A stretch of 64,000 nt of DNA, from positions 2,918-66,917 of the forward strand of contig JAWAZL010000002.1 in assembly GCA_038817485.1 (NCBI GenBank), given 5' to 3'. The notes below the pieces were generated by a model that was given only the letters and a program-made list of their open reading frames with translations, was not told the origin of the DNA and made no database searches. This DNA is from Nitrososphaerota archaeon (GTDB lineage: Archaea; Thermoproteota; Nitrososphaeria_A; Caldarchaeales; JAVZCJ01). A program made the translations under genes and the position numbers. Below are positions 18,107-60,734 of the stretch, piece by piece (position 1 is the stretch's first letter; each line of letters begins with the position of its first letter).

Positions 18107-18440
18107 AGAATTTGGATTAAGAATACCTACATTTCAATAATGATAGTAGAGGAAGAAAATTCATAGAAGAATGTTTTAATTCAGGTTTGGTTAATGATCA
18201 TTTTGTTCCATGGGCAACTTTTGCCCCTCCTAAAGTTGATCATTTAGAATGTTGGACAACAATATCTTATCTTTCAGGCATATTTAGTAAAATGAAGTTT
18301 GGAAGTATTGTATTGTGTAATTCCTATAGAAATCCTGCATTAGTTGCTAAAATGTCTTTTACTCTTAATGTTCTTACAAATGGCAGGTTCATTTTAGGAA
18401 TTGGTGCAGGTTGGAAAGAAGATGTTTCCAAAAACTAATG
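18107..18440 (+). pseudogene. Truncated remnant of a luciferase-like (LLM) flavin/F420-dependent oxidoreductase, paralogous to 57079..57981
   Basis: MSKIEFGLRIPTFQ then a stop at 18107-18151. A second piece in another frame reads ...RFILGIGAGW (the LLM signature GxGAGW). The rest of the gene is missing. Confidence 0.6.
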
Positions 18441-22327: not shown

Positions 22328-22689
22328 TTTTTACACTTTTTATAAAAAATAAGGTATTTTAAATAAATTATTTTGAAGTTTTTATCAATGAATTTATTAT
22401 AAGACTATTTAAGTCTTTCTTAATAATTATATCATTTTATTATTGATTTAAAAATTGATTGTATTATTTAGAACAAGAAGAATTTAATTTTCATAAAGAA
22501 TTTCATTAATTTTACTCAAATAAGGCTTTATATTAACTATAATATTTTGGTTTTTAGCTTTTAAGAAAGCTAAAAATTTTTAAATGATAAAACAAATTTC
22601 ATTAGTGATAAATTTAACAGCTATGTTTTTATAATTCAAATGATGGGCTATTCTATTATATAATTCGTTTTATCTTTTATTAAAGTTTT

Positions 22690-23903
22690 TCCTAAATAAT
22701 TGCTTTTGCCCATTTTCCATATTTTATCCATATTATAGCTATAATTCCTATTAAATTGCTTATTGCTGTAGATGCCCAAATTCCTATGGATCTCATTCCT
22801 AGAATGAATGCTAGAATATAGTTAGGGTTATTCTAAACCCCCAGAGTCTAAGTATTCCGAGTGTTGTTGGAAATAATGTATGCCCAGACCCTCTTCAATA
22901 GATAGGGATACTAAAAAGAGACTGAAGAATGGAAGTGTTGGTAGAAGCGTTTGAAGAAAAATATCGGTCCCCTCTAAAATGTTTTTGTCGTTTGCAAAAA
23001 CATCTACTATACTCCTTCTCATTGGATATGCAATAGCAGCTCCAATCGCAACAAGAATAAATATGAGGAACATTGCTTTTAAAGCAACTTCTCTTGCTCT
23101 TTTTGAATTCCCTGCTCCTAGACTTTACCCATCATTATGGCTGGAGCTGCACTCAACCCCAAAGTGCAGCATCTACAGCATCTATTATTATAAAACCTAT
23201 GGAGAAAGCTGTAGCTGCCACCCCTGAAACTCTATTATTAGCTCATGTATTATCAACTTTTAATAAACTATTGCTCCTTTTTTAACAAGTAATTTCTTCA
23301 TGTTTTCTCATAATATTCTCTTTTTCTTTTTTCAATTTTTTCTTTATTTCCAGGAGAAATAAATGTTAGATTATCTGATGTTATTATAATAAATAAAATT
23401 GAAAATGCAATACCAATCTTGCCCATAATACCCATATTTTTAGTAAATCCTATTTTTAGCTCTGAGTAATTTTCTCTAAGGATATAAGCTAAAGCAATTA
23501 TCGATATTATCTTTCCTATAACATCTGTGAGCATTATACTCAGAACTCCACCTGATAAAAAAGCTAATGTGAAGAAACGTGAAGCTGATAAACTAGCTTC
23601 TTTATAGGCTTTGCTTCCCACATATTGTGAAATAAGACTAAGAATGGCTATAGTTAAAGCATTTGCAATCGCCTGTAAAAGCATAAGAATTGACCACATT
23701 TGTCTTGGAACAGCTATCACTATTTCACTATAATTGCTTAACCAATATGAGTCCGTTACATTGTAGGCTACAATCACAAGCTGATTTACAAGTGGAGGAG
23801 TTCCAAGCCAAAAAAGTGTACGAATAATTGGTCCATTAATAATTTTCTCTCTATACTTACTTATTCCACTTGATTTTAGTGATGTTTTGGAATCTTCAGC
23901 CAT
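22690..23903 (-). pseudogene. MATE-family efflux transporter, disrupted by several frameshifts and stops
   Basis: The N-terminal half is intact (23298..23903, typical MATE TM1-6). The C-terminal half is recoverable only as pieces in all three frames, between 22700 and 23297. Confidence 0.6.
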
Positions 23904-32905: not shown

Positions 32906-33992
32906 TTAAATGTTTATCAAATTTATATCCACATTGCATTCAAACATTCTCCCATTTATTTTTCCATAGCTTTCGCATTTGCTACATATATTTGAAGTAT
33001 TCTTTGCTTTTACTAATGTTTGTTTTAGATTTCTTTGATTTTTACTAAAAGTCGGTATATATGTTAATACTTTCATAGAATAATTCCACAGACTCTTTTC
33101 AAATGTTCTTTTTATTATTTTTCTAAGCCATTCTGCACTCTTTTTATTTGTTTTCTTGCTATCGTTTCCAGCTTCATAGTCTTTAAGATTTTCAAATGAA
33201 ATTATTGCAATTTCACAATTATATTGTTTTATACTCTCTAATGCAATATCAATAAGCTTTTTAGAAGTCTTCTCTATCCAATCTTTATTTTGTCTTTGTA
33301 TTCTTTTGTTTATTCTTTGGAATAATTCATTGTATTTTACTGAAACTCCATGATTTTCTTGTAATCTCCATTTTACAATTTCTTGGAATTGATGGCTTTT
33401 AATTTTTGGTTTAATAAAAGCAAATTTCATTGGTTTTATTGAATTATCTTTAGTATTCCATATCCATAAAGAATAAGCTACGCCATGTTTTGAATTTAAA
33501 TCAACACCTATTACTGCAATTCTTTGTAGTTCCTTAAATTCTTCTTTAGTTAATAGTTTAATGTTTTTCTTTAAAATTACATGCAATTCCCAAATGTCCT
33601 TTTTTGATTATTTCTCTTCTTTTATGATGCCCTTTCTTATAACTTGGTGGTAGAACTCTTATCATCGTAGCTTTTGCTCCATTTTCAATTTCTTTTTTAA
33701 GATAATCCATTTGTTTTCAGCAATTTTTATTGGAGTCCTTTTATATTTTCTCTAAAGATGTTAACCATATTATATTATTTTCAAAGTCTATATTGAAACC
33801 AGTTTCGCAAAATGTTAAATGAGATACATTGAATTTATTGAATAGTTTCATTGAAGCTTTTAATGTTGATAGTAAATCAAATTCTATATTTCTTCTATAT
33901 CTATACTTTGCAATATTCCAAGCATTTAATATATTATAAAGATATTCATTATTATCAATAGTTTTTAATTTTACAATTTTCCTTATTTGCAT
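32906..33992 (-). pseudogene. tnpB: IS200/IS605-family TnpB (OrfB) gene, split by two frameshifts into three pieces
   Basis: N-terminal 83-aa ORF 33741..33992. A middle piece MDYLKKEIENGAKATMIRVLPPSYKKGHHKRR is in another frame. The C-terminal 226-aa ORF 32906..33586 carries RuvC-I IGVDLN, RuvC-II ISFENL, the Zn finger CSKC...C and RuvC-III NVDINLINI. Confidence 0.7.
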
Positions 33993-39515: not shown

Positions 39516-39623
39516 TGCCGGGGGTGGGATTTGAACCCACGACAACCGGAATTCATCTTTCTTGATTATGAATCCAGCCAGTCTTGGGGTCCGGCACTCT
39601 AAGCCAGTCTGAGTTACCCCGGC
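39516..39623 (-). tRNA. Intron-containing tRNA (108 nt). It best fits elongator tRNA-Met (anticodon CAU) with two short introns. The alternative is a single 32-nt canonical intron with anticodon CCA.
   Basis: Acceptor GCCGGGG/CCCCGGC with discriminator A, D-arm ACTC...GAGT, T-arm GTGGG-TTCAAAT-CCCAC. The internal hairpin CTGGA-TTCATAA-TCCGG gives a canonical anticodon loop (U33, CAU, A37). A TATA box lies at about 39650 on the minus strand. Confidence 0.8.
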
Positions 39624-40892: not shown

Positions 40893-41230
40893 TGACGAGG
40901 GCTCCTCGAGGTGGGCACGTCGTTTCTTAAGTTTATCTTTCAATTCCTTTCTCCAGTGCGTTTGCCTTGAAGCGAAGATGCCTCGCCTTATGGCTGCTCT
41001 CTCCCGAGCCTGACCAGGTTCGGCGAGTTAGGATAATCCTTAACCTTCCCTACGGAAGGAGGATTACCCTACATCCCCCCTCAAGGGCGCACCTTCCTTG
41101 AAAGGAATTGAAAGTAAACTTAAGGCGTACATGCCGCCCTCAAGGTTACTGGCCCCTGCATATAGCCGGTTTCAGGTTAATAGGAGACGGCTAGCCTCCC
41201 AGCCCTTCCCCCCGTCACCCATTAAATATA
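40893..41230 (+). ncRNA. GC-rich structured RNA of about 338 nt (candidate SRP 7S RNA or RNase P RNA; type not resolved)
   Basis: A TATA box (TTTTTATAAAAAA) lies about 25 nt upstream. The 5' GGGTGACG pairs with the 3' CGTCACCC. A roughly 25-bp long-range helix pairs CTTAAGTTTATCTTTCAATTCCTTTC with GAAAGGAATTGAAAGTAAACTTAAG. There is a 13-bp hairpin TAATCCT/CCTTCC-CTAC-GGAAGG/AGGATTA. GC content far exceeds the flanks. Confidence 0.6.
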
Positions 41231-55665: not shown

Positions 55666-57090
55666 ATGGTGCTAAAACCAGAAAGAAAGTATCAAACATT
55701 AACAACGATATCTGGTCCATTATTATTTATAGAAGCAACAAAAGATGTGGCTTTTGGAGAACTTGTAGAAATAGAATTACCAAATGGAGAAATAAGGAGA
55801 GGGCAAGTATTAGAAGTAAGTGAAAATAGAGCAATAATACAAGTATTTGAAGGAACAAGCGGACTTGATATAGATAAAACAATAGTGAGATTTACTGGAG
55901 AAACTATAAAAATACCAGTAGCACAAGAAATGATTGGAAGAATATTTGACGGATCTGCAAGACCAATAGATGGAGGCCCACCAATAGTACCAGAAGATGA
56001 AATAGACATACATGGGTCTCCATTAAATCCATATACAAGGGAATATCCAAAAGAACCAATACAAACAGGAATATCAGCAATAGATGGAATGAATACGCTT
56101 GTAAGAGGACAAAAATTACCAATATTTACTGGAACAGGATTGCCACATAATCAATTAGTAGCACAAATAATAAGACAAGCAAAAGTACCTGGTAAAGAAG
56201 AGGAATTTTTAGTAATATTTGCAGCATTAGGAATAACAGCAGATGAAGCAAGATTCTTTAAAGAAGAAACTGAAAAAAGGGGAGCATTGGCAAAAACAAT
56301 AATGATTTTAAATCTTGCAGATGACCCTGCTATTGAAAGAATAATAACGCCAAGAATAGCATTAACAATAGCAGAATATTTAGCATATACTTATGATATG
56401 CACATACTAGTAATATTAAGTGATATGACAAACTATTGTGAAGCATTAAGAGAGATATCAGCAGCAAGAGAAGAAGTGCCTGGAAGAAGAGGATACCCAG
56501 GATACATGTATACAGATTTAGCAACAATATATGAAAGAGCAGGCAGAATACATGGAAGAAAAGGAACGATTACACAAATGCCAGTTGTAACAATGCCTCA
56601 TGATGATATTACACATCCAATTCCCGATCTTACTGGTTATATAACGGAAGGGCAAATATTTTTAGACCGTGGTTTACATCGTAAAGGTATATACCCACCT
56701 ATTGATGTTTTTCCTTCTTTAAGTCGTTTAATGAAGGAAGGTATAGGTAAGGGTTTAACTCGTGAAGATCATCGTGAAGTTAGTGATTGTTTATATTATG
56801 CTTATGCTGAAGGAAGACGTGTGCGTGAATTGATAGCTGTAATAGGAGAAGAAGCTTTAAGTGAAATTGATCGTCTATATTTACGTTTTGCTGATGAATT
56901 TGAACGTCGTTTCATAAATCAAGGTTATTATGAAGATCGTAGTTTTGAAAAAACTTTAGATTTAGGTTGGGAATTACTTAGTATGCTTCCTGAGAGTGAA
57001 TTAAAACGTGCCGATCCTGCTACTATTCGTAAATATTTGCCTAAATATCGTAAAAAAGAAGCTATTACTGAGCCTAGTTTAACCGCTTAA
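55666..57090 (+). CDS. atpB: A-type ATPase subunit B
   Basis: 474 aa regulatory-subunit homologue. Confidence 0.9.
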
Positions 57091-57981
57091 TTTTCTATAT
57101 TTAGGAAATATCACTTTAGAGAATTTTTTTAAAACAGTTATAGCCTTATCTGGAGAAACGTTTGTTTGTGAAAAATCAATTATAATAGCGCTTGCATTTA
57201 ATTTAATATATGAATCTATATTTGATATCCATTCTGATGTTTTTTCGCCTACTCCATCTGGATAAGAAAGTGATGGAACTAAAAGAATTTTTCTTCTTCT
57301 TTTATAGCATTTCATTATTTTAATAATCTCATTAGTCATTTCTTTAAATTTTTCCAATGGTGTATCTGTTAAAAAGAGAAAACCACTTCCATATTTTACA
57401 GCAGCTTCAAGTATAATTTTTGAGGATCCGCCAAACCAAATTGGTGGATGGGGTTTTTGTATAGGTTTTGGCCAAAAAGGTGCATTATAAACTTTATAAT
57501 ATTTTCCATCATAAGTTACTTTATCTTCTTTCCAAAGTTTTAATATTATTTCTAATCCCTCTAACATTTTTGAAATTCTTTCTTTATGAGCTTCCCAATT
57601 AAAACCATAAGAAATAGCCTCATCTTTAAACCACCCTGCTCCTACGCCAAAATTAACTCGACCATTAGAAATTATATCCGCTGTTGTTATAATCTTTGCA
57701 AGTTTAGCTGGCATATAAAATGGTATTGGAGAAACGCGAGTTCCTACTCTAATTTTTTTCGTTTGTACCGCTATAGCAGTTAACAAAGTCCAAGCGTCAA
57801 GTTTATTTGGTTTTTTAGGATTTCCTCCTGTTTTTATGTATATTTTTTCTGGAAGATAAAAATGGTCGCCAACCCATAAAGAATTATAGCCTAATTTATC
57901 CGCAATGATAGAAATTTTTACAATATCAGAATAACTATATTTACTATGGGTTGGTAAATGGATGCCAAAACTTAGAAACAA
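57079..57981 (-). CDS. Luciferase-like (LLM) flavin/F420-dependent oxidoreductase
   Basis: 300 aa with GVGAGW. The N-terminus [11 protein letters not shown] matches the LLM start. Confidence 0.65.
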
Positions 57982-59156: not shown

Positions 59157-60092
59157 TTATTTTCTTAGTAAATCTTGAAAAACAAGTATTCGAACATTCA
59201 TAGGTTTTTTTGTTATTTCTCCAACTCTACTTCCTACTAAATATACTTCTTCATCCATGTTTGAAGCTATATCAACAAGTCTTTGCGTAACAACTCCATC
59301 AAAAACAATATATTTAATATTTTTATAATTCTCGAGTTTTTTAGCTAATTCGCTTACAGGAACTTTTTCAATTATATTTGCTTCATTATCCATTAAATAT
59401 GCGATTAAACTTCCCTCAACTTCTTTAGCAACTTCTAATACGCTACTTGGTAAATCATATTGCTTTCTTTCAATGATTAGACTTTTATATTTTTCCTCTT
59501 TTAGCAATTTTGCCTCCTCAAATGCATCTGCTATTTCTTTTCCAGTAAGCTCTTCTACCTCTTTTCCATACGGCGCTCTTACAATAATGTCTATTTTTAC
59601 CCCCTCATTTAATAATTGCTTTAGTATTAGATCCCCTCCTCTATCACCATCAAGAAAAGCTATAACTCTCTTTTTAGTCTTAGCAATTTCTTTAACAGTT
59701 TCAGGTATTTTTACTCCTTCAACTGCTATAACATTTTTATATCCATGTCTTAAAAGATTTATAACATCTGCTCTACCTTCCACGATTATTAATTCTTCAC
59801 ACTCTTCAATTTCTGGACCTGCAGGAAGTTTTTCTGGCCCATATTCAACAATCTTAGCTTTTACAAGCGCCTCTTCAATCTCTTTTAAAACTTCATCTTC
59901 AATAGGTATTTTCTTCATTTCCCACTCATATAAAATTGCTTTCGCTCTTTCAACAATTTTCTTTCTTTTTTCAGCTCTTACATCATTTATCTTATCTATC
60001 TTAACTTTTGCTGAATACGGTCCAACTCTATCAACAATTTCAAGCATAGCTGCTATTAATGCTGTTGTGCTTCTTTCAAGACTAACTGGCAC
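59157..60092 (-). CDS. dnaG: Archaeal DnaG (Toprim primase/exosome-associated protein), main body. The conserved N-terminal 36 residues plus linker are encoded at 60093..60334 in a different frame (see findings).
   Basis: Toprim motifs IIVEGRADVINLL and IAFLDGDRGGDLI. The upstream segment encodes MSQISTVKYIIEASIEVDGNVDKPDIVGALFGQ and TEGIFSSEFDLRELQRTGRIGRIEV in two frames. Confidence 0.75.
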   Translation of the reverse strand: MPVSLERSTTALIAAMLEIVDRVGPYSAKVKIDKINDVRAEKRKKIVERAKAILYEWEMKKIPIEDEVLKEIEEALVKAKIVEYGPEKLPAGPEIEECEELIIVEGRADVINLLRHGYKNVIAVEGVKIPETVKEIAKTKKRVIAFLDGDRGGDLILKQLLNEGVKIDIIVRAPYGKEVEELTGKEIADAFEEAKLLKEEKYKSLIIERKQYDLPSSVLEVAKEVEGSLIAYLMDNEANIIEKVPVSELAKKLENYKNIKYIVFDGVVTQRLVDIASNMDEEVYLVGSRVGEITKKPMNVRILVFQDLLRK

Positions 60093-60311
60093 GTATATTT
60101 TCCCATGTGTTTTATTTCCTACCTTTTCTACTTCTACCTCTATCCTTCCTATTCTTCCTGTTCTTTGTAATTCCCTTAAATCGAATTCGGAACTAAATAT
60201 GCCCTCTGTTTTCGGCGCATTACTTAGAGTAATGCTTGACCGAAGAGAGCTCCTACAATATCAGGCTTATCAACATTACCATCTACTTCTATACTCGCCT
60301 CTATAATATAT

Positions 60312-60734
60312 TTAACTGTTGAAATTTGACTCATTTAACCACCTCCACTCATTTTTTAAATATGAATAAATATCTTCTATTTCATTTAAACCATACTTTT
60401 TAAATTCACTTATTTTTTTCCAATAATATAAATCAACTTTATACCCTTTTATTGAAAGTAAGTTATAAAGTTTTTTGCATATATTTCTTCCTTCTTGATC
60501 AAAATCTACTAATAAAATGAATTTTTTAGTAGTCCTTTCTTTATGTATAAATTCTAAGAGTTGTCTATATTCTAATATTTTCCCCTTAAAACCAAAACTT
60601 TTTAATGCTTCTCTATCTCTTTTTCCCTCTACTATTAAAATTGTTCCCTCTTCTTTATTCAAATCATCGATTATTTTCATTAAAGATTCTATTAATGCAA
60701 AATTATTCTTTTTAACTATATTTCTTAATTTCAT
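60312..60734 (-). CDS. Small Toprim-domain protein (COG1658-like)
   Basis: 140 aa with ILIVEGKRDREAL and LLVDFDQEGRNI. Confidence 0.6.
   Translation of the reverse strand: MKLRNIVKKNNFALIESLMKIIDDLNKEEGTILIVEGKRDREALKSFGFKGKILEYRQLLEFIHKERTTKKFILLVDFDQEGRNICKKLYNLLSIKGYKVDLYYWKKISEFKKYGLNEIEDIYSYLKNEWRWLNESNFNS

Follow-up and report, generated by a model that had tools for sequence, protein, structure and literature searches.

We analysed a stretch of 64,000 nucleotides (nt) from a Nitrososphaerota archaeon (assembly GCA_038817485.1, contig JAWAZL010000002.1, positions 2,918 to 66,917 of the forward strand; hereafter, the window), in which the dnaG gene, encoding archaeal DnaG, is interrupted by a short insert. 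The gene lies on the minus strand. Its open reading frame (ORF) starts with the ATG at 60334, reads MSQISTVKYIIEASIEVDGNVDKPDIVGALFGQALL and ends at a stop codon at 60226-60224. The conserved continuation, TEGIFSSEFDLRELQRTGRIGRIEVEV..., is found in the -1/+2 frame. Between the two parts lies a 26-nt insert, gcattactctaagtaatgcgccgaaa (60235..60210, minus strand), which interrupts the gene after codon 33. The codons ...GGT CAA precede the insert, and ACA GAG GGC ATA... follow it in the shifted frame. Both the stop codon and a perfect 8-bp hairpin are contained within the 26 nt. The inverted repeat of this hairpin (GCATTACT-N3-AGTAATGC, 60217..60235) has no mismatches and is the sole exact copy in the window.

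Removal of the 26 nt gives a 1152-nt ORF that encodes a protein of 383 amino acids (aa), in which the sequence ...GALFGQ/TEGIF... is rebuilt across the junction. The restored protein scores 438.8 bits against the NCBIfam model NF003108 'DNA primase DnaG' (cutoff 300), and Toprim domains are present. In uninterrupted relatives, exactly this point of the gene reads TTCGGnCAR-ACnGARGG, which encodes FGQTEG. The preliminary description of the locus had reported the frame from 60334, its stop, the non-triplet insert with the hairpin and the -1 continuation; it had also stated that FGQTEG is conserved in archaeal DnaG and that removal of the 26 nt restores the GQ/TEG motif. All of these statements were confirmed. 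Hereafter, the parts of dnaG before and after the insert are called exon 1 and exon 2. In the exon-2 frame, the earliest ATG, GTG or TTG is the GTG at 60092, which is 39 codons past the junction.

Relatives of the locus were collected from contigs of one genome per species, from JGI metagenomes and from a collection of 5.8 billion protein sequences. As the preliminary description had proposed, orthologous dnaG loci were compared, and at least seven independent assemblies (80-100% protein identity) proved to have an insert at this position. The independent datasets are one GTDB representative genome, JGI Ga0209225, Ga0078972 (two strains) and Ga0105159, and four Logan runs. The insert occurs in three lengths, 26, 22 and 19 nt, none of which is a multiple of three. 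The 26-nt form has the loop CUA in the window and in a Logan run (L019). It has the loop AUA in one metagenome-assembled genome (MAG) and its metagenome (L001/L009), in a JGI metagenome (L007) and in two strains of one metagenome (L008 and L010). The 22-nt form, GCAUUA-AAA-UAAUGC followed by GCCGAAA, was found in a Logan run at 80% protein identity (L015), and the 19-nt form, GCAU-UAUA-AUGC followed by GCCGAAA, in the Logan runs L018 and L020. The variants differ in length only because the stem of the inner hairpin is shortened symmetrically, and they share an unchanged core, CUCUUCGGU-CAA-GCAU...AUGC-GCCG-AAA-ACAGAGGG. A sequencing or assembly artefact, which the preliminary description had listed as an alternative, is a general possibility in any metagenome-derived sequence. 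However, independent datasets share the insert together with synonymous differences in its flanks and with the three length variants, and an artefact is therefore scarcely credible.

In the protein collection, all DnaG sequences of at least 80% identity are truncated calls of 296-323 aa, whereas those of 67% identity or less are uninterrupted. Full-length calls begin at 67% (P0007), where the locus is intact. Thus, the insertion has become fixed in a single clade, outside which it is absent. One insert-bearing record is labelled 'uncultured Nitrososphaeria archaeon', and the closest intact DnaG homologues carry the source names Aigarchaeota, Ca. Wolframiiraptor or Nitrososphaerota. The host is AT-rich, with a guanine-cytosine (GC) content of 27%. 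Common to the recovered loci are tyrS, a small Toprim protein, a 35-36-aa ORF and the 'truncated' dnaG; the gene order tyrS, Toprim, dnaG is kept in L015, L018 and L019. In the window, this stand-alone small Toprim protein (60312-60734, minus strand, 140 aa) is PRK04017-like and RNase M5-like, and its gene overlaps the start of dnaG by 23 nt. A 277-aa ORF antisense to dnaG (59473-60306, plus strand) is of low complexity, rich in S, F and I, and almost certainly a shadow ORF.

The ratio of nonsynonymous to synonymous divergence (dN/dS) was calculated among five distinct genomes, between which the synonymous divergence (pS) is 0.2-0.6. In exon 1 (33 codons) it is 0.00-0.09; in exon 2 it is 0.02-0.13 over the initial 47 codons and 0.05-0.18 over the 153 codons that follow. 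For the 39 start-less codons past the junction, the pooled ratio of nonsynonymous to synonymous differences (pN/pS) is 0.106. The first in-frame start of exon 2 varies by genome, lying at codon 40, 55 or 30. Since the 39 start-less codons are conserved and the restart position is not, these codons are translated in the exon-2 frame, which is possible only if they are joined to exon 1.

These values bear on the possibility that a fixed disruptive insertion has inactivated or split the gene, in which case the locus would give either no DnaG or one that starts internally and is shortened at its N-terminus, perhaps alongside a separate 36-aa peptide. The ORFs annotated by gene callers are all truncated (296-323 aa), and the window holds truly decayed genes (MatE and a luciferase-like monooxygenase fragment) as well as a weak TnpB-like remnant, all of which would suit such a loss. 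Against it stand a dN/dS of about 0.1, at pS up to 0.6, both for exon 1 and for the 39 codons beyond the reach of internal starts, and the lack of a conserved internal start position. In addition, dnaG is broken cleanly and at one point only, whereas the MatE gene has decayed in several frames. Furthermore, a passage of PMC4227792 describes the N-terminal region of archaeal DnaG as a conserved RNA-binding domain. Inactivation or splitting of the gene is thus very improbable, and the doubt that the preliminary description had expressed about a plain pseudogene is borne out by the strong purifying selection on both exons. Judged from these sequence comparisons, the dnaG insert is neither a pseudogene lesion nor an artefact.

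The preliminary description had also considered the footprint of an IS200/IS605-type palindromic element. When the window was searched for the palindrome at up to three mismatches, only the dnaG copy and a single chance-level match with three mismatches were found, so that a second copy, which would favour inactivation by such an element, is missing from the window. The only TnpB-like match, weak and below threshold, lies 27 kb away, and the suggestion has little in its favour. A mobile-element footprint may be the origin of the insert, but such an origin leaves the selection pattern unexplained.

The 76-nt region containing the insert folds with a minimum free energy (MFE) of -27 kcal/mol (z = -5.4), and none of 200 shuffled sequences was as stable. 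In order, the MFE structure consists of an outer helix GCUCUC/GAGGGC, a bulge in the 3' strand, a helix (UU)CGGU/GCCG(AA), the 5' bulge CAA and the inner hairpin. The same fold was obtained for all length variants at 37, 70 and 85°C, and the RNAalifold consensus agrees with it. The strand topology of helix, central helix, bulge and helix is that of the archaeal bulge-helix-bulge (BHB) splice motif. In the definition of this motif, two 3-nt bulges are separated by a 4-bp helix (PMC6379350), and the splicing endonuclease EndA cleaves between the second and third residues of each bulge (PMC2738675). In dnaG, the half of the motif formed by the central helix (H), the bulge (B) and the inner helix (h') is complete in all variants and in all folds: the central helix is CGGU/GCCG with one U.G pair, the bulge is CAA, and the inner helix has 8, 6 or 4 bp.

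The cleavage rule was applied around CGGU/GCCG. The cuts then fall at CA/A and AA/A, and the excised fragment, A-GCAUUACUCUAAGUAAUGC-GCCG-AA, is exactly 26 nt. The ligated product GGUCA+AACAGAG reads GGU CAA ACA GAG, that is, G-Q-T-E, and in the shorter variants the excised fragments come to 22 and 19 nt by this rule. Thus, the cut prediction based on structure and the frame requirement based on the protein agree to the nucleotide. The fragment defined in this way (60211..60236) is equivalent to the insert at 60235..60210, because the A-runs allow the junction to slide by 1 nt in either direction with the same product. Conservation follows the motif. None of the six exon codons within it (L30-E35) shows a synonymous change, as against 41.5% variable codons elsewhere in the gene (P = 0.04), and the codons just outside it (G28, A29 and G36) are variable. 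No change is seen at the 15 nucleotides of the intron core, for which P is about 4e-5 on the assumption that they evolve as 4-fold sites do. In L015, L018 and L020, a G.U pair of the outer helix is changed to G-C by a synonymous GCU>GCC substitution.

Both strands of the window were scanned under strict settings for a BHB-type motif with a short intron that fuses two ORFs, the downstream one start-less. The dnaG site was the best match (score 29). The one other match (score 20) is a false positive that bridges two adjacent genes, and the reversed-sequence control gave no matches. An earlier permissive scan for BHB motifs and ORF fusions was discarded, as it gave hundreds of matches in this DNA of 27% GC, mostly bridging neighbouring genes.

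These results suggest that the dnaG insert is likely to be a pre-mRNA intron with a relaxed BHB motif, spliced by EndA and an RNA ligase. The fold, its conservation, the fit between cleavage rule and frame, the selection on both exons and an EndA-family subunit encoded in the window (see below) are direct observations. Several others weigh against an intron. The strict hBHBh' form is not present at the 3' side: between the AAA bulge and the outer helix of 5-6 bp, there are only a single base pair (U:A) and an internal loop. In the MFE structure, the first two A residues are paired with UU (60244-60243), which results in a 6-bp central helix and a 4-nt bulge AACA; enforcing the strict 4-bp register takes 3-4.6 kcal/mol at 37°C, and less at high temperature. 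Covariation analysis of the variants found no compensatory double substitutions at any pair. The 5.8 billion database sequences contain no junction-spanning protein of more than 75% identity, so that no spliced transcript, and no close allele without the intron, is on record. Finally, neither a catalytic EndA alpha subunit nor the ligase RtcB was found within the 64 kb.

Since the 3' side is not of the textbook form, the motif qualifies only as a relaxed BHB of the HBh' type. Relaxed motifs (hBH and HBh') are cleaved efficiently only by EndA of the (alpha-beta)2 and epsilon2 types (PMC6379350 and a passage of PMC5829648). Because compensatory substitutions are absent, we do not claim covariation support; the support for the structure is the invariance, the pattern of indels and the one G.U>G-C change. 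In the 22-nt genome (L015, 2700-2775), exon 2 has GGG CUC UUU (G-L-F) in place of GGC AUA UUU (G-I-F), and this change lengthens the helix between exons 1 and 2 to about 9 bp. The longer outer helix may make up for the reduced inner hairpin or may have arisen by chance.

The preliminary description had favoured programmed translational bypassing. In general terms, translational recoding, in which the ribosome either shifts frame in a programmed manner or hops over the insert (bypassing), would give full-length DnaG from the unspliced mRNA. The stable hairpin with an in-frame stop codon just past the break suits this explanation, and a -1 shift is formally possible in the 26-nt variant, where the exon-2 frame has no stop codon across the entire insert. 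The non-triplet gap, the hairpin and the stop codon in an otherwise conserved ORF are also shared with T4 gene 60 and the mitochondrial byp elements. However, the 26-nt insert needs a -1/+2 shift, whereas those of 22 and 19 nt need a +1 shift, and no slippery heptamer is common to them. Because the length variants need opposite shifts, a fixed frameshift is excluded. In L015, the window in which a shift would be permissible is only about two codons, and a frameshift product would carry 6-9 additional residues (insert-encoded, e.g. ...SSITLSNAPKTEG...) in the most conserved motif of the N-terminal domain.

With regard to bypassing, no variant has matched take-off and landing codons (CAA vs AAA; neither GGU nor CAA on the landing side). 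The stop codon lies three codons (26 and 22 nt) or two codons (19 nt) past CAA and is not adjacent to the take-off site, and, unlike in gene 60 and byp, closely related genomes differ in the length of the gap (26, 22 and 19 nt). Moreover, the indels are stem-symmetric and not codon-wise, which points to a constraint on RNA structure and not on coding. To our knowledge, neither bypassing nor comparable frameshifting at such sites has been described in Archaea. Taken together, recoding as a whole is a poor prospect. That archaeal ribosomes bypass a structured gap of 19-26 nt, or shift in lineage-specific directions, seems poorer still; if true, it would be the first archaeal programmed bypass. 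The weight that the preliminary description had placed on the hairpin has therefore stood, and the bypass that it favoured has not. A BHB intron had not been considered there, although its question of whether the insert is spliced in RNA sequencing data points in that direction.

Splicing of dnaG by EndA could proceed as follows; the cleavage, the ligation and the enzymes responsible are what we infer from the sequence. The 4-bp central helix would arise by pairing of CGGU in exon 1 with GCCG at the intron's 3' end, and the 3-nt bulge CAA and the A-rich bulge opposite would present both splice sites. The motif would be held by the inner hairpin (8, 6 or 4 bp) and by the 5-6-bp outer helix between exons 1 and 2. 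EndA, presumably of the heteromeric broad-specificity (alpha-beta)2 type, would cut after the second nucleotide of each bulge and release the 26-nt intron. An RtcB-type ligase would then join ...GGUCA to AACAGAG..., giving GGU CAA ACA GAG (G-Q-T-E) and the full-length DnaG of 383 aa. The predicted spliced RNA, ...GGTCAAACAGAGGG..., would be shorter by 26 (22 or 19) nt, and the protein would contain the junction-spanning peptide ...GALFGQTEGIFSSEFDLR. Because of the UAA in the hairpin, the unspliced mRNA would give only a 36-residue peptide.

The insert might instead be removed from the RNA by an enzyme other than EndA/RtcB, for example by a structure-specific RNase together with a ligase. The non-canonical 3' site in the MFE structure, and the fact that a catalytic EndA subunit was not observed in the window, would fit such an enzyme. 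On the other hand, the exact match between the canonical cuts and the frame-restoring junction would then be a coincidence, and we know of no other archaeal exon-joining system for short inserts. This alternative is accordingly quite unlikely.

The EndA-family protein encoded in the window was aligned to M. jannaschii EndA (PDB 1a79). The residues corresponding to Tyr115 and His125 are Phe and Val/Ala, respectively, and Lys156 is retained. The protein scores under all NCBIfam endA equivalog cutoffs, so that neither alpha nor beta is assigned by these models. Its best matches are to the non-catalytic first repeat of tandem EndAs, and beta-subunit models are matched weakly. Because the catalytic Tyr and His are missing, it is putatively a structural subunit of the beta type. 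No catalytic subunit adjoins its gene. A non-catalytic EndA paralogue in the window would imply that the splicing endonuclease of this organism is heteromeric and of broad specificity.

The window also contains a single tRNA gene, recognised by Rfam, with 32 extra nucleotides in the anticodon arm. ARAGORN in its default mode found no tRNAs in the window, and a plain fold of the anticodon arm was uninformative (z = -0.6). A single canonical intron was tried and rejected, as it would leave a Trp(CCA) loop with an abnormal C33 and no BHB. The gene is best explained, on modelling, as tRNA-Met(CAU) with two introns of 17 and 15 nt at non-canonical positions and with the loop UUCAUAA. This model was favoured both by ARAGORN on spliced models and by a rule-based BHB search, and it obeys the same cleavage rule as the dnaG site, in line with the type of endonuclease proposed above.

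Table 1. Coordinates of dnaG, of its predicted splice motif and of the splicing-related genes in the window
Feature	Position	Strand	Remarks
dnaG exon 1	60237..60334	-	ATG to C60238, A60237 = first two bases of codon 33 (canonical BHB cut, predicted)
Predicted 26-nt BHB intron	60211..60236	-	A + GCAUUACU-CUA-AGUAAUGC + GCCG + AA; contains frame-0 UAA 60226-60224
dnaG exon 2	59157..60210	-	Last base of codon 33, TEGIF..., Toprim domain, to stop
Outer helix h, 5' strand GCUCUC, exon 1	60245..60250	-	Pairs with GAGGGC 60206-60201
Outer helix h, 3' strand GAGGGC, exon 2	60201..60206	-	
Central helix H, 5' strand CGGU, exon 1	60239..60242	-	Pairs with GCCG 60216-60213; invariant in all variants
Central helix H, 3' strand GCCG, intron 3' end	60213..60216	-	
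5' bulge CAA, 3 nt	60236..60238	-	Unpaired in every fold; predicted cut A60237/A60236
Inner helix h' and loop, GCAUUACU / CUA / AGUAAUGC	60217..60235	-	8 bp; 6 bp in L015; 4 bp in L018 and L020
3' splice-site region AAA-ACA	60207..60212	-	Predicted cut A60211/A60210
EndA-family protein, 192 aa	21749..22327	-	PF01974, 66 bits vs cutoff 27
tRNA	39516..39623	-	Rfam 50.9 bits; 32 extra nt in anticodon arm

Other features of the window were as follows. The MatE-family gene (22650-23903, minus strand) was examined as a second intron-bearing gene and rejected, since its pieces of 201, 81 and 34 aa lie in at least three frames, as in ordinary decay. A luciferase-like monooxygenase is represented at 18187-18438 (plus strand) by an isolated piece of 83 aa, probably a remnant, which matches positions 51-112 of the 314 in the profile; its full-length paralogue is encoded at 57079-57981 (minus strand). 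Two adjacent ORFs at 32906-33992 (minus strand, 226 and 83 aa) appear TnpB/Cas12f-like by eye and give a sub-threshold TNB zinc-finger match (E = 0.007). They may be a relic of the IS200/IS605 family and are unrelated to the dnaG insert. An archaeal signal recognition particle (SRP) RNA is encoded at 40895-41215 (minus strand; Rfam RF01857, 179.9 bits). The SRP RNA and the GC-rich tRNA in a genome of 27% GC fit a thermophilic archaeon.

Among known systems, the proposed dnaG intron is closest in kind to the intron of cbf5, which was reportedly treated by Watanabe in 2002 and by Yoshinari in 2006. In Desulfurococcales and Sulfolobales, the cbf5 pre-mRNA contains an intron of 16-44 bp with a BHB-like, 'frequently' relaxed motif, which is cleaved by a hetero-oligomeric EndA (Yokobori 2009, PMC2738675). 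As in cbf5, the dnaG intron is very short (19-26 nt, inside the size range of the cbf5 introns), lies in the coding sequence and has no coding capacity. Both have a BHB-like motif, relaxed in dnaG and often so in cbf5, with predicted cuts between the second and third bulge residues. In both cases one clade has the intron and its relatives lack it, and the hetero-oligomeric EndA of the cbf5 hosts is matched by the one proposed here. In contrast, the host gene of the present intron encodes an exosome-associated Toprim protein and not a pseudouridine synthase of the TruB family. The lineage also differs, being labelled Nitrososphaeria, with the nearest uninterrupted DnaGs in Aigarchaeota and Wolframiiraptor-like MAGs, and not Thermoprotei. 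Splicing of cbf5 was shown experimentally, whereas that of dnaG is predicted. Thus, the dnaG intron is of the same kind as the cbf5 intron but an independent insertion.

In Haloferax volcanii, a BHB intron in the 5' untranslated region (UTR) of the HVO_1309 mRNA has been demonstrated in vivo and in vitro (PMC7714728). There, as proposed for dnaG, the substrate of the splicing endonuclease is an mRNA, outside tRNA and rRNA; unlike in dnaG, the intron lies in the untranslated leader and interrupts no reading frame. With the BHB introns of archaeal tRNA and rRNA (hBHBh', hBH and HBh'; PMC6379350), the dnaG intron shares the 4-bp helix, the 3-nt bulge(s) and the flanking helices. The enzymes are presumed to be the same, and the interior of the intron is likewise free to vary in length. 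The dnaG motif differs from these in that it lies in an mRNA without a tRNA body, its 3' bulge is relaxed, and its outer helix is formed by two coding exons.

HAC1 and XBP1 are spliced in the eukaryotic cytoplasm by IRE1 together with tRNA ligase or RtcB; the XBP1 intron is 26 nt, and the splicing is regulated by stress. The dnaG case resembles them, as a mechanistic analogy only, in a short mRNA intron defined by stem-loops, the absence of a spliceosome, a change of frame and, as predicted, ligation of the RtcB type. The endonuclease is IRE1 in those systems and would be EndA in dnaG, and stress regulation is a feature of HAC1/XBP1. By this analogy, splicing of dnaG could be rate-limiting or regulated, such that the levels of DnaG and of the exosome would be coupled to EndA/RtcB in an XBP1/HAC1-like manner; this is conceivable but doubtful.

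A study of 2020 named cbf5 as the only other BHB intron reported in archaeal mRNA besides the 5'-UTR case of Haloferax (PMC7714728). In the literature that we searched, no link between dnaG and an intron was found, and the later papers cite only the cbf5 work. If the insert is an intron, as is most likely, dnaG would be only the second protein-coding gene of Archaea, besides cbf5, in which one is known. The case is of interest because cbf5 has stood alone for two decades, since 2002 and in Crenarchaeota only.

Since every public DnaG call of the clade is truncated, annotation pipelines mislabel a functional gene of an essential type as a fragment, and comparable hidden introns elsewhere may go unnoticed. 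The 26-, 22- and 19-nt forms offer a natural allelic or deletion series with which a minimal mRNA substrate could be defined. If the dnaG insert is indeed spliced, EndA-dependent splicing of mRNA would have arisen repeatedly in Archaea, and again in association with a heteromeric EndA of broad specificity.

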